Notes: generated from the sequence alone by a model not told the origin. Positions 739 through 2,767 are shown, counted from the first letter of the stretch. The stretch is 7,864 nt of DNA from an archaeon (GCA_041677685.1 JBAYPN010000030.1:1-7864), one strand, 5' to 3'. Translations and numbers: made by a program.

Positions 739-1032
739 ATGGCTAGACCTAAAAAACTTGAGAAAAACAAGAAGATTTTTGTTCCAATAACTCTGGATAA
801 AAATATATATTTTTACTTAAAAAAACAAGATATTAAGATATCCACTTACATTAACCAAATGCTCAAAGTCGCTTTAAATAAAGGATCTAGAGAAAATGAC
901 AATTTTTATGACCCTAACCTTTCAACCTTGGTAAGGTTGAGGTCGCGAGTTCGACTCTCGCCAGAAGCTTTGAAAGGAGCTTTTACCCTTTATCTTAAAA
1001 AACAAAGCTTTAAATTTTGTTTCTTTCTATAA
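739..1032 (+). CDS. Ribbon-helix-helix (CopG/Arc-like) small DNA-binding protein, with a C-terminus read through a tRNA fragment
   Basis: The ORF starts at ATG. The N-terminal ~50 aa (KKIFVPITLDKNIYFYLKKQDIKISTYINQMLKVAL) show a strand-helix-helix pattern typical of RHH proteins. From about codon 62 the ORF is simply a translation of the tRNA-Thr fragment and its degenerate copy (923-1013). The C-terminal third is therefore probably a recombination-generated extension, not native sequence. Confidence 0.45.
   Translation: MARPKKLEKNKKIFVPITLDKNIYFYLKKQDIKISTYINQMLKVALNKGSRENDNFYDPNLSTLVRLRSRVRLSPEALKGAFTLYLKKQSFKFCFFL
923..969 (+). pseudogene. tRNA-Thr(GGU) 3' fragment (tRNA positions ~27-73), not a complete gene; candidate att site
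   Basis: Anticodon stem CAACC (923-927) pairs with GGTTG (935-939), with loop TTGGTAA and anticodon GGT at 930-932. The variable loop is AGGTC (940-944). T stem GCGAG (945-949) pairs with CTCGC (957-961), with T loop TTCGACT. The 3' acceptor strand is CAGAAGC (962-968) and the discriminator is T969. No CCA is encoded. No complementary 5' acceptor strand (G[CT]TT[CT]TG) or D arm occurs within ~200 nt upstream or ~60 nt downstream. Confidence 0.8.
972..1013 (+). repeat. Degenerate copy A' of the tRNA-fragment-derived unit
   Basis: GAAAGGAGCTTTTACCCTTTATCTT...ACAAAGCTTTAAA. It shares three parts with copies B, C and D: a short AAAG-loop-CTTT hairpin, a TTTTAC(C)-type anticodon-arm remnant, and an AAGCTTTAA acceptor-like end. 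It lies directly after fragment A. Confidence 0.5.
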
Positions 1033-1052
1033 TACATTATAGGTGAAATGAT

Positions 1053-1262
1053 ATGAAATTATCTGCAATAATAACAAAAGAAAATAATCTTTTTGTTGCA
1101 CTTTGTCCTGAGTTAAATATAGCCAGTCAAGGTGACAATGAAAAAGAAGCTCTTTTAAATCTTAAAGAAGCTGTAGAATTATTTTTAGAAGATGAAGATT
1201 CAAAAGAAGTTATTAAAAATATTTATCCTGCAAAAATGTTTTCTTTAGAAATTACAGCTTAG
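1053..1262 (+). CDS. hicB: HicB-family antitoxin (short UPF0150-type, no fused DNA-binding domain)
   Basis: 69 aa. The pattern NNLFVALCPELNIASQGDNEKEALLNLKEAVELFLED matches the HicB/UPF0150 signature (..vaxxPelpgxxsqGxtxeEAlxnlkEAixlxle). An SD-like AGGTGA lies 7 nt upstream. hicA follows 11 nt downstream on the same strand. Confidence 0.8.
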   Translation: MKLSAIITKENNLFVALCPELNIASQGDNEKEALLNLKEAVELFLEDEDSKEVIKNIYPAKMFSLEITA

Positions 1263-1273
1263 AGGTTTAATAA

Positions 1274-1495
1274 ATGAGTAAACTTTCTGTTATTTCTGGA
1301 AAAGAATTAATTAAAATTTTAGAAAAAAATAATTTTAAAATTGTTGGACAAAAAGGAAGTCATATCAGATTAAAGAAAATTGTTAATAATGAAATTTATA
1401 TTACTGTTGTTCCATTACATAAAGAAATAGCTCCTGGAACCTTATTATCAATACTAAAGCAATCAAAATTAAGTAAAGAAGATTTATTTGATTAA
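1274..1495 (+). CDS. hicA: HicA-family mRNA interferase toxin
   Basis: 73 aa. SGKELIKILEKNNFKIVGQKGSHIRLKK...VPLHKEIAPGTLLSILKQSKLSKEDL is the classical HicA/YcfA pattern, including the GSH histidine and the PGTLxxILKQ tail. An SD-like AGAGGT lies upstream. Confidence 0.9.
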   Translation: MSKLSVISGKELIKILEKNNFKIVGQKGSHIRLKKIVNNEIYITVVPLHKEIAPGTLLSILKQSKLSKEDLFD

Positions 1496-1511
1496 TTTTA
1501 TCATAAAATAT

Positions 1512-1662
1512 AAAAAGAGCGCTTTTAACCTAAGGTTCAATACAACTGGTTTTGGTCTCATAAAAAATCTTAAATTTTTTAGGATCCTAAAAAGCAATTG
1601 CTTTTTATGAAGTTGACACCCAATGGTTTGATAATAAAAAAAATTCCCGCAAAGAAGCTTAA
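1512..1662 (+). repeat. Copy B of the tRNA-fragment-derived unit, split by an insert of about 107 nt
   Basis: The 5' part, 1512-1537 (AAAAAGAGCGCTTTTAACCTAAGGTT), equals the anticodon-arm region of fragment A minus TGGT. The 3' part, 1645-1662 (TCCCGCAAAGAAGCTTAA), resembles TCCCGCCAGAAGCTTTAA of copy C. The unit starts 16 nt after the hicA stop codon. Confidence 0.55.
1576..1606. other. Two overlapping perfect 18-nt palindromes (possible terminator or alternative hairpins)
   Basis: TTTTTAGGATCCTAAAAA (1576-1593) and AAAAAGCAATTGCTTTTT (1589-1606) share the AAAAA at 1589-1593. As RNA hairpins they would therefore be mutually exclusive. The second is followed by a T run, so it looks like a terminator for hicBA. 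Confidence 0.4.
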
Positions 1663-1718
1663 TTTTTTAGAAAATTATATAAATATTTGCAATAATACTA
1701 TAATTAAGAGGTGATAAT

Positions 1719-2054
1719 TTGAAAAAAATATTATCAAGATTATTTAATAAACCTATATCAAAAAAACCTAAACCAACTATTAGAAAATCTGTAAATTTAA
1801 GTAATTTATCTGAATTAACTGCTGAAAGAAATAGAATTGGAAAAGAAATTTTAAAAGGACCTAATTCTAAATTATTTAAAAGTACTGTTCTTTTAGCTAG
1901 TGAAATTAATAAAAAAAAATTATCTGAAATAAAAGTAATAGATATAGTTAACAAAAATTTTACAAAATATCCTAGTATGAAAGAAGATGTTTTATTATAC
2001 TTAAAATATGATTTTATGATTAGAAGTAATAGAGAACATAGTCCTAAAAAATAA
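1719..2054 (+). CDS. Hypothetical lysine-rich protein (111 aa)
   Basis: TTG start preceded by a strong SD-like AAGAGGTGA with 4-nt spacing. A TATA-like ATTATATAAA lies about 35-45 nt upstream. Composition (K/N/E/I rich) matches the other genes here. I recognise no family. Confidence 0.6.
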   Translation: MKKILSRLFNKPISKKPKPTIRKSVNLSNLSELTAERNRIGKEILKGPNSKLFKSTVLLASEINKKKLSEIKVIDIVNKNFTKYPSMKEDVLLYLKYDFMIRSNREHSPKK

Positions 2055-2100
2055 AAAGAGTACTTTTCACTTTTGGTTAAAGTCCCGCCAGAAGCTTTAA
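2053..2100 (+). repeat. Copy C of the tRNA-fragment-derived unit (T arm deleted)
   Basis: AAAAAGAGTACTTTTCACTTTTGGTTAAAGTCCCGCCAGAAGCTTTAA. The 13-mer CGCCAGAAGCTTT (2086-2098) is identical to 959-971 of fragment A. GGTTAAAGTC corresponds to GGTTGAGGTC of A. The unit overlaps the stop codon of the 111-aa ORF. Confidence 0.65.
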
Positions 2101-2160
2101 GAATAATTAAAATAGTGTGTTTTAAATATCTTTCTATACTTATAATATTTTACTAATCTC

Positions 2161-2188
2161 CCTACCATTGCTTGCGAGCAACGGTAGG
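2161..2188. promoter_or_regulatory. GC-rich 12-bp stem-loop 20 nt upstream of the NYN gene start
   Basis: CCTACCATTGCT (2161-2172), loop TGCG, AGCAACGGTAGG (2177-2188). Eleven of 12 positions pair on the plus strand, with an A2167/C2182 mismatch. On the minus strand that position becomes a G-U wobble, giving 12 of 12. It stands out sharply from the AT-rich surroundings. Confidence 0.6.
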
Positions 2189-2207
2189 TGCACTTAATAC
2201 TGATTTT

Positions 2208-2726
2208 ATGAAAAAAGTAATGATTTTTATAGATGGTTCTAATTATTATAATTCTTTAAAAATTTCATTTAATTTAACAAAGATAGATATTAAAAAATTA
2301 GTTGATTTTTTAGTTAAAGATAATAATTTAGTAAACATCTATTATTATTCAGCACCTTTAAATCAAATAAAATTTCCTGAGAAATATAAAAAACAACAGA
2401 AATATTTTGCAAAATTACAAAATATAAAAAGATTAAAGTTAACTTTAGGACGTTTAGAACCTAGAGATGGAACTATGGTAGAAAAAGGTGTTGATGTTAA
2501 CTTAGCTGTAGATATGGTTAGTTGTGCTTATAATGATAAATTTGATATTGCTATATTAGTATCAAATGATGCAGATTTTGTGCCTGCTGTTTTAGAAGTT
2601 CAAGCATTAGCAAAACAAGTATATAATGTGATTTTTCCAAAAACAAAATCTTATCATTTAACTAAAATTTGTGATGAATCTATATATATAAAAGATATTT
2701 CTGATTTTTTATTAAGTGATAAATAA
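2208..2726 (+). CDS. LabA-like NYN-domain protein (predicted PIN-like RNase, DUF88/PF01936 type)
   Basis: VMIFIDGSNYYNSLK at the N-terminus, GVDVNLAVDMV in the middle and DIAILVSNDADFVPAV are the three acidic motifs typical of LabA/NYN domains. I prefer the ATG at 2208 to the ORF-track TTG at 2172, because the 12 extra codons are the GC-rich hairpin. Confidence 0.8.
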   Translation: MKKVMIFIDGSNYYNSLKISFNLTKIDIKKLVDFLVKDNNLVNIYYYSAPLNQIKFPEKYKKQQKYFAKLQNIKRLKLTLGRLEPRDGTMVEKGVDVNLAVDMVSCAYNDKFDIAILVSNDADFVPAVLEVQALAKQVYNVIFPKTKSYHLTKICDESIYIKDISDFLLSDK

Positions 2727-2767
2727 AAATAGCACTTTTTACTTTCAGTTTAACTCTTACTAGAAAC
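2725..2767 (+). repeat. Copy D of the tRNA-fragment-derived unit (most diverged)
   Basis: AAAAATAGCACTTTTTACTTTCAGTTTAACTCTTACTAGAAAC aligns with copy C (AAAAAGAGTACTTTTCACTTTTGGTTAAAGTCCCGCCAGAAGC) at roughly two-thirds of positions, by eye. It overlaps the NYN stop codon. Confidence 0.4.

Follow-up and report, generated by a model that had tools for sequence, protein, structure and literature searches.

A probable fossil array of small gene cassettes, closed by a tRNA-derived repeat, downstream of a tRNA-Thr gene in an AT-rich archaeon

The DNA analysed here, referred to as the window, is the whole 7,864-nt stretch GCA_041677685.1 JBAYPN010000030.1:1-7864 from an AT-rich, uncultured and apparently mesophilic archaeon; L-numbers designate the other contigs with which it was compared. 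Three small modules follow one another in the window, carrying the toxin-antitoxin pair hicBA, an orphan open reading frame (ORF111) and an NYN-domain gene, and each is closed by a copy of a repeat unit of about 45 nt whose right part copies the 3' end of a tRNA. We consider it probable (roughly 60%) that the window holds the fossil of an array, here three cassettes long, that was anchored on a tRNA gene and assembled by site-specific recombination. On this reading the window is the downstream portion of an integration hotspot at the tRNA-Thr(GGT) gene, with two stacked layers. The layer nearest the tRNA, mostly to the left of the window, would consist of two tandem elements of the Sulfolobus spindle-shaped virus (SSV) type. 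The other layer, older and displaced downstream, would consist of the three cassettes, each made up of a leader, one or two genes and a unit. The features of this second layer are as follows.

971-1052, plus strand: hicBA leader, containing the palindrome AAACAAAGCTTTAAATTTTGTTT and a TATA-like box, with GGTGA ahead of the ATG
1053-1495, plus strand: toxin-antitoxin cargo of cassette 1, hicB (1053-1262) and hicA (1274-1495; HicA_toxin, E 2.6e-19)
1510-1541, plus strand: left arm of unit B, ATAAAAAGAGCGCTTTTAACCTAAGGTTCAAT
1542-1644, plus strand: filler of about 103 nt inside unit B, at the inferred exchange point
1645-1662, plus strand: B2, the right part of unit B, derived from the tRNA, TCCCGCAAAGAAGCTTAA
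1663-2054, plus strand: cassette 2, a leader and the orphan gene ORF111 (1719-2054)
2051-2100, plus strand: unit C, the best preserved, with left arm GAGTACTTTTCACTTTTGGTTAAAG and right part TCCCGCCAGAAGCTTT
2101-2726, plus strand: cassette 3, a leader with a hairpin (2161-2188) and the NYN-domain gene (2208-2726; NYN, E 1.6e-26)
2724-2767, plus strand: unit D, a decayed copy, TAAAAATAGCACTTTTTACTTTCAGTTTAACTCTTACTAGAAAC

In the unit, a conserved left arm, GAGCGCTTTTCACTTTAGGTTCAA, is joined to a right part copying the T-loop, the 3' T-stem strand, the 3' acceptor strand and the discriminator of the tRNA. Composition-weighted Smith-Waterman scores were 29.1 for unit C with B, 27.6-30.6 for C with D and 27.9 for C with fragment A, a piece of tRNA-Thr at 923-970 that is described below, while the maxima over 40 dinucleotide shuffles had a mean of 18.6 (sd 2.0, largest 24.7); the direct comparison of B with D was borderline. 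Units C and D could be aligned without gaps over 47 nt at 76% identity, D departing from C chiefly by G/C-to-A/T changes. The pattern GAGYRCTTTTNAC, with at most one mismatch allowed, matched only B, C and D (0.10 matches expected). The 13-mer CGCCAGAAGCTTT occurred exactly twice in the window, at 959 in fragment A and at 2086 in unit C, compared with about 1e-5 copies per window as estimated from base composition; a preliminary description of this DNA had rightly judged the shared 13-mer unlikely to be due to chance. The strongest test, being independent of the window, used an nhmmer model for which four units of a different contig, L132, were the sole input. It retrieved C (E 7.7e-13), B (E 7.8e-5), the tRNA ends, that of fragment A included (E ~2e-4), and D (E 3.1e-3), and gave no other match in the window or the 20-kb loci. 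The relatedness of B, C and D, proposed in the same description, thus holds against both the shuffles and the external model.

With a window of 23% G+C, in which a repeat search listed many 'families' of 30-60 nt at 70-78% identity that amount to background, a chance likeness of AT-rich 3' regions had to be weighed, as had a dispersed intergenic repeat resembling repetitive extragenic palindromes (REP) or miniature inverted-repeat transposable elements (MITE). Either is very improbable. The similarity withstood the composition-weighted shuffles and the independent L132-only model, every copy lay on the coding strand at a gene end within an array, and the units had no terminal inverted repeats and no significant fold. 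Further units were sought in the 20-kb loci around the window and in other loci of related archaea (about 60 kb in total), and none was found. The preliminary description had named insignificant similarity, genome-wide dispersal and strict conservation among relatives as outcomes contrary to an array; the similarity was significant, the unit was not dispersed in these 60 kb, and distant relatives varied in the modules they carried.

The units were coupled in position to gene ends. A unit followed 16 of the 18 gene ends examined in the window, L132, L133 and L011, and in 10 of the 16 unit-bearing gene ends the CTTTT anchor was situated 6-9 nt past the stop codon. In the window, units B, C and D start 16, 0 and 0 nt after the stop codons of hicA, ORF111 and the NYN gene, exactly as first reported, and unit C overlaps the stop codon of ORF111. 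The splitting of unit B by an insert, with B2 at 1645-1662, was likewise upheld: the pattern TCCCGC-N(1-3)-AGAAGCTT, picked after inspection of the data, matched only C and B2 and was found in 0 of 200 shuffles, and the split layout recurs at L132:3260-3288 plus 3332-3351. The filler inside unit B possibly represents the remains of a gene-less or deleted cassette.

Other parts of the preliminary description were not borne out. The A-run hairpin attributed to all units, and the units as a whole, folded no better than shuffled sequence (top strands, z -1.3, -0.9 and +0.8), nor was the fold of the bottom strand of unit C, the sole bottom strand tested, significant (z -1.5), so that an attC-like fold was not found in these strands. 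At none of the units, whether in the window or on L132, L133 or L011, did Rfam report a match. The middle part of the unit had been described as an anticodon-arm remnant, which was not confirmed and is suggestive at best: in a comparison of the left arm with the tRNA body, 465 of 20,000 shuffles scored equally well (p ~0.02), and derivation of the left arm from the D-stem and anticodon arm was set aside as suggestive at most. The string AGAGCGC in the left part of the L132 unit consensus corresponds to the 3' D-stem strand of tRNA-Thr, which is suggestive in the same sense.

Five units had been claimed in all, of which four stood, namely B with B2, C, D and fragment A. The fifth, termed A' and placed at 972-1013, did not; its best score was 16.3, compared with shuffle maxima of 19.3 +/- 1.5, and the segment proved to be the conserved leader of hicBA instead. 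Window positions 956-1039 were 87% identical to L132:8029-8112 and positions 981-1039 were 87% identical to L133:932-991, and a leader of identical type precedes hicB in L132b, L133 and L143. In both the window and L132 this leader begins directly after ...AGCTT. Ahead of the hicBA cassette, the role of the tRNA-derived right part is also filled by the last ~20 nt of fragment A, and the cassette adjoined the tRNA directly before the SSV-type elements came in.

The cassette leaders are AT-rich and contain TATA-like boxes and GGTGA before the start codon; the promoter scan covered sigma-70-type sites only. Judging from these motifs, each cassette appears to have a promoter-like leader of its own. 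The leader of the NYN gene additionally contains the hairpin CCTACCATTGCTTGCGAGCAACGGTAGG (window 2161-2188, z -3.5), which is kept in the NYN leader of L133 (1557-1584) and is possibly a regulatory element of the 5' untranslated region.

Three contigs beyond the window's species carry the unit. On the 1.5-kb contig L011, which encodes the sole distant homologue of ORF111 (P0002, 60% identical), the order is a tRNA 3' end (...TTCAAATCCCCTCTGGAGCT), then the ORF111 homologue, whose leader is similar, then GCGCTTTTCACTTTCAG running on into TTCAAATCCCCTCTGGAGCT, and finally chromosomal genes. The module forms a clean insertion, about 545 bp long and accompanied by a 20-bp repeat. The L011 unit has the same left arm as the units in the window, and its last 20 nt (TTCAAATCCCCTCTGGAGCT) are identical to the L011 tRNA from exactly the T-loop onward. 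Together with the 13 nt that unit C shares with the tRNA of its own organism, this suggests that the right part of the unit tracks the host tRNA.

Contig L132 was the single contig returned by a metagenome scan with a 20-base degenerate pattern. It contained at least 11 gene-plus-unit modules in 12.3 kb, on one strand throughout, with an S51 peptidase, a C39 peptidase, Fic and an AGOG-like gene, five AAA_14/DUF4143 ATPases, a 110-aa ORF and two hicBA pairs as cargo. No tRNA was found on it with ARAGORN, and no recombinase domain among nine ORFs scanned against Pfam. Its unit consensus, (A)AGAGCGCTTTTCACTTTAGGTTCAACTCCCGCCAGAAGCTT, matched the tRNA-Thr of the window organism at 20 of 22 positions from GTTC onward, with no match to the left of GTTC except AGAGCGC. 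The third contig, L133, comes from another assembly and has the order GNAT, hicBA, unit, NYN, unit, its NYN protein being 92% identical to that of the window. Wider scans added nothing: the loose pattern CTTTTCACTTTNNGTTNAA, run against genome contigs, gave at least 120 chance matches in bacteria, none of them relevant among the matches listed, and three unit or tRNA-end patterns run against viral contigs gave either nothing or chance matches in G+C-rich phages, and no free unit-bearing element. NYN homologues at 55-58% identity were ordinary chromosomal genes beside SMC, UbiA and others, and provided no route to further arrays. In one related archaeon (L140, L141 and L142) an NYN homologue is located beside reverse transcriptase and bAvd-like genes, a neighbourhood that looks like a diversity-generating retroelement.

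Sequence comparison showed the ORF111, NYN and hicBA modules again on other contigs, beside other genes. Window 2054-2726 was 88.6% identical to L133:1449-2120, the upstream neighbour being ORF111 in the window and hicBA in L133. The hicBA pair of L133 is of the L132 type (L133:947-1478 vs. L132:8068-8601, 91.6%) and is flanked by GNAT and NYN there, and by ATPase cassettes in L132; this homology begins at the hicBA leader and stops at GTTCAATT inside the unit. Of the ATPase cassettes on L132, two (3337-3546 and 12145-12354) share 96.7% identity with homology from CGCCAGAAGCTT on, and their left arms and preceding genes are unrelated. Together the two junctions bracket an exchange point between GTTCAA and CGCC. 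In the tRNA, the T-loop meets the T-stem at this position, a junction that is among the sublocations known for integrases (Williams 2002, as relayed in PMC8371274). Unit B in the window and the unit at L132:3260-3351 are both interrupted at this inferred point.

A 45-nt motif (AACYGGTTTCGYTCRGTT.ACGCA..AATKGTT) was observed inside one L132 unit (3286-3332) at the inferred exchange point and directly after another (10027-10066). Its stem shows a compensatory change, AACTG/CAGTT vs. AACCG/CGGTT. The filler at window 1542-1644 occupies the same place and matched the motif weakly (E 1.7). As a native 3' flank of the tRNA the motif was rejected, the matches to L011 (E 1.1) and to the window (E 1.7) not being significant.

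The hicBA module was also seen in settings lacking the unit, at 90-93% nucleotide identity (L143, 9938-10500; also L151, L153, L155 and L165). The copy on L143, a contig of 671 kb, is flanked by direct repeats (~33 bp) of a peptidase M6 gene's 3' end, and those on other contigs are located just past an intron-containing tRNA (3' end ...CTGGGAGGAGGGA) that was missed by ARAGORN; the copy on L151 has a 16-bp direct repeat, AGGGAATCCGACTCCT. None of the hicB homologue loci examined contained the unit, the modules being located at other tRNA or gene ends.

From this arrangement we infer site-specific recombination, through circular intermediates and by a recombinase. In a circular cassette, the unit would be the site of recombination with either a resident unit or the 3' part of the tRNA-Thr gene, and strands would be exchanged between GTTCAA and CGCC. 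The left arm would then move with the preceding gene and the tRNA-like right part with the leader behind it; the tRNA would be rebuilt at each insertion, and one extra unit left each time. Because the cassettes encode no recombinase, the enzyme would have to be supplied in trans; the integrase of the co-resident SSV-type element is a candidate only by its proximity and its shared target, and strand exchange at the anticodon loop, as in the SSV1 integrase (PMC8371274), speaks against it.

Cassettes might also be exchanged, duplicated or lost with no dedicated site-specific enzyme involved, if the 45-bp units, perhaps kept as terminators, served as blocks of homology for replication slippage or homologous recombination. 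The searches near the arrays turned up no recombinase, the units carry T-runs straight after stop codons, ATPase cassettes are duplicated inside L132, and the 16-33-bp repeats of the local target that flank hicBA elsewhere suit a single-crossover homologous insertion. As an account of the whole array we regard this as unlikely, homologous recombination between units being nevertheless a live alternative. The breakpoints are concentrated in a single short segment instead of being spread along the whole unit, as seen in two junction comparisons only, and the anchored arrays begin at a tRNA 3' end, the classic target of tyrosine recombinases. The terminator scan called none of the units, and their hairpins are weak and not significant, unlike the stable G+C-rich hairpin plus T-run of an intrinsic terminator; archaeal oligo-T termination at the T-runs is possible.

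To the left of the cassettes, the window enters the layer of SSV-type elements, with the following features.

923-970, plus strand: fragment A, assigned as attR core, identical to L001:747-794 in the intact tRNA
739-970, plus strand: int(N), the N-terminal fragment of a split SSV-type integrase gene, whose ORF extends to 1032 into the next module
10-699, plus strand: 3' part of a methyltransferase gene (Pfam Methyltransf_31, E 1.5e-5, under the curated cut-off)
L001:8895-9647: the whole of this methyltransferase gene (250 aa), between the tRNA and fragment A and starting upstream of the window

The preliminary description had taken fragment A for a genuine piece of tRNA-Thr and had suggested a search for recombinase genes upstream, and both points were substantiated. 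An intact tRNA-Thr(GGT) was located at L001:722-793, 9.2 kb upstream of fragment A, together with a tyrosine recombinase. Fragment A was identical to the 3' part of this tRNA at 48 of 48 nt (L001:747-794; the L001 copy of A is at 9871-9918), covering the anticodon stem to the tRNA 3' end plus 1 nt. ARAGORN found no tRNA in the window, and the Rfam tRNA model touched fragment A with a score under threshold.

On L001, L002 and L003 an integrase gene (PF16795) starts inside the tRNA, its C-terminal part, int(C), corresponding to L001:761-1585. In the window, a 97-aa ORF (739-1032) reads through fragment A in the integrase frame, and window 739-969 joined to L001:794-1585 yielded a single 340-aa ORF with no stop. 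This joined ORF matched PF16795, the archaeal phage integrase family, at E 2.1e-34, the catalytic-domain structures of the SSV1 integrase (3uxu, 3vcf and 4dks) at E ~1e-13, and fusellovirus (SSV) integrases in tblastn. The integrase was assigned on these matches to the SSV type, in which attP is situated within the integrase gene itself and the gene is split on integration. The 97-aa ORF is int(N) and fragment A the attR core, integration having split the gene at its internal attP. After a second int(N) copy at L001:4849-5098, which matches window 694-935 at 91% identity, comes a truncated core, AACCTTGGTAAGTTTAAG, that retains only about the first 18 nt. The 9.2-kb stretch from the tRNA to fragment A was therefore assigned to two tandem SSV-type elements with fragment A as their attR, the inner one eroded, with its int(C) gone and its core truncated. 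The methyltransferase gene is cargo of this inner, older element.

The split of an attP-bearing integrase gene and the 48-bp tRNA-derived repeats are shared with the 'suicidal' integrase elements of Sulfolobales and Thermococcales, a likeness limited to fragment A and the DNA left of it. The differences are the AT-rich, apparently mesophilic host and a cargo that is metabolic-looking or methyltransferase-rich. This family accounts for fragment A and not for units B, C and D: fragment A belongs to an integration system other than that of the units. In the SSV1 integrase the overlap, where the strands are exchanged, is the anticodon loop (review PMC8371274), and by analogy the overlap of fragment A is expected at its anticodon loop. 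The idea that ORF111 is a decayed int(N) was discarded, since only two relatives were found and neither has an integrase domain; its frame enters unit C in the same phase as int(N) enters fragment A because the stop codon is part of the unit. On one contig, L004, type I restriction-modification genes (HsdS and HsdR) at 1-3022 replace the tRNA-Thr, int(C) and a 429-aa gene of the other strains, identity to L001 starting again at L001 position 3022.

The erosion seen in the inner element raises the question of whether units B, C and D could be attR scars of three full-size, integrase-bearing elements that were later deleted down to one or two genes. For both archaea (PMC8371274) and Prochlorococcus islands (bioRxiv 2020.12.28.424599), elements integrated in tandem at a single tRNA have been described, and the inner SSV-type element just upstream, lacking int(C) and having a truncated core beside the second int(N), provides a local example of such decay. 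For the three units this origin is nonetheless quite improbable. Independent scars should each resemble the tRNA, whereas the units share derived features that the tRNA lacks, namely a common left arm of non-tRNA sequence and the shared absence of the anticodon loop, the variable region and the 5' T-stem. They begin within a few nt of the stop codon in unrelated genes, no recognisable integrase gene or fragment was found in the 12 kb of L132 (nine ORFs vs. Pfam, no recombinase domain), and the ORF111 module in the L011 host is the clean insertion described above. Of the two accounts offered in the preliminary description, serial integration with erosion thus holds left of fragment A, and a cassette system fits B, C and D better, because the unit closes unrelated genes and the modules recur with homology stopping in the unit.

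Several observations weigh against site-specific assembly of the cassettes. A recombinase able to act on them was looked for within 20 kb and none was found; the sole integrase in that range is the split SSV-type one, and the overlap used by SSV1 is the anticodon loop rather than the T-loop (PMC8371274). No dyad symmetry was detected in the unit consensus, which thus has no evident conventional core site. Only three independent contigs beyond the window's species carry the unit (L011, L132 and L133), and since hicBA also occurs without it, the unit is not required for every move. Decay is not ordered by distance from the tRNA: C is least decayed, followed by B and then D, so that B is more decayed than C. 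Finally, the comparison of related genomes that had been suggested at the outset gave a divided result, with modular variation in the more distant relatives and no presence or absence of the three cassettes varying among 10 contigs of near-identical strains. Given these invariant strains and the decayed units, the array copy in the window looks inactive; its units probably decay under AT-biased mutation, and the stretch is probably a fossil.

The locus as a whole was present on at least 19 contigs (NCBI metagenome-assembled genomes labelled 'archaeon', and ENA, JGI and Logan assemblies; exact-protein matches), and window positions 900-2800 were 99.8-100% identical across the 10 contigs compared. 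The genes are short and have GGTGA-type ribosome-binding sites, and close relatives of their proteins carry the labels Candidatus Diapherotrites or 'archaeon', from which we infer a small-genome, DPANN-type host. Downstream of the array, the window contains a perfect 23-bp tandem repeat (TAATATATATGCACTTTGTAACA, 3.5 copies, 4811-4890) in an intergenic region whose length varies by strain, by 180 bp between L001 and L004. On the minus strand, 4148-4282, in the gap after a 241-aa methyltransferase gene, is a relatively G+C-rich segment of about 135 nt with a long closing stem and three internal hairpins (minimum free energy -41.2 kcal/mol, z -4.6 vs. 200 shuffles). No Rfam family matched this predicted structure, which makes a candidate small structured RNA. 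A ribbon-helix-helix-like ORF at 4369-4640 has an in-frame TAA at 4477, with the frame open for about 55 codons beyond, and may be a pseudogene or a read-through candidate.

Among known systems, the cassettes come closest to integrons, including archaeal integrons (Ghaly et al. 2022, PMC9668308), and to clusters of attC sites lacking integron integrases (CALINs). In these, too, most cassettes carry a single ORF, share one orientation and end in a repeat resembling a recombination site, which lies at the stop codon or overlaps it; they occur in differing orders and duplicated within an array, and the repeats are alike within one array. Same-strand arrays of this form, ending in the site, were found with 3 cassettes in the window and at least 11 modules on L132, and cassettes that appear individually mobile, with boundaries in the site (GTTCAATT, CGCC), in a few examples. 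The cargo is comparable as well, with toxin-antitoxin pairs, acetyltransferases and genes of defence type abundant in both (for archaeal integrons, PMC9668308). There are also differences. An IntI-type gene was looked for and not found, either in the 20-kb loci that surround the window or among the nine L132 ORFs scanned; the unit has neither the R''-L''/L'-R' inverted-repeat architecture nor a significant hairpin; the 3' end of a tRNA is the source of the site, and a tRNA gene serves as anchor instead of attI. In addition, the cassettes here apparently carry their own AT-rich, promoter-like leader with GGTGA.

The second arrangement with which the locus was compared is tandem accretion at a tRNA gene. 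Cis-mobilisable elements of streptococcal integrative and conjugative elements are one case of it. In tycheposon islands (bioRxiv 2020.12.28.424599) and archaeal elements (PMC8371274), as here, a full tRNA stands at one end with partial copies between the modules, newcomers displace older modules inward, and the remnants decay. An integrase of their own was found in the two SSV-type elements and not in the hicBA, ORF111, NYN or L132 modules. Known archaeal tandem cases involve elements of about 9-23 kb (PMC9897764), whereas the modules here measure 0.5-1.4 kb, contain one or two genes and lack recombination and replication genes. The separators moreover share a non-tRNA arm and therefore descend from one another, not each from the tRNA. 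Integration hotspots at tRNAs, tandem scars of partial tRNAs and the SSV-type split integrase are already well known; of arrays of 0.5-1.4-kb, single-gene modules that show no recognisable integrase, all end in one tRNA-derived repeat and turn up in different orders and different hosts, we found no description in the literature, which is not proof of absence.

A broader proposal, to which we give somewhat less than an even chance, is that such arrays represent a second, independently evolved cassette platform in small-genome archaea, in which the 3' end of a tRNA would act as attI and an unstructured repeat of about 45 nt as attC, with a recombinase working in trans that might be the SSV-type integrase of a co-resident element. 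On this platform, one- or two-gene cassettes with their own promoters would be captured, stockpiled, duplicated and swapped between lineages; the cargo so far comprises toxin-antitoxin pairs, an NYN nuclease, STAND-like ATPases, Fic and peptidases. If a site-specific system does move the modules, integron-like stockpiling could arise from an ordinary tRNA attachment site, with neither attC hairpins nor IntI. It would provide a concrete mechanism for the flux of accessory genes in reduced-genome archaea with few recognisable mobile elements, for which the unit model offers a search handle in metagenomes, and a tractable view of how a recombination site comes to be joined to the 3' end of unrelated genes, a question that is open for integron cassettes.

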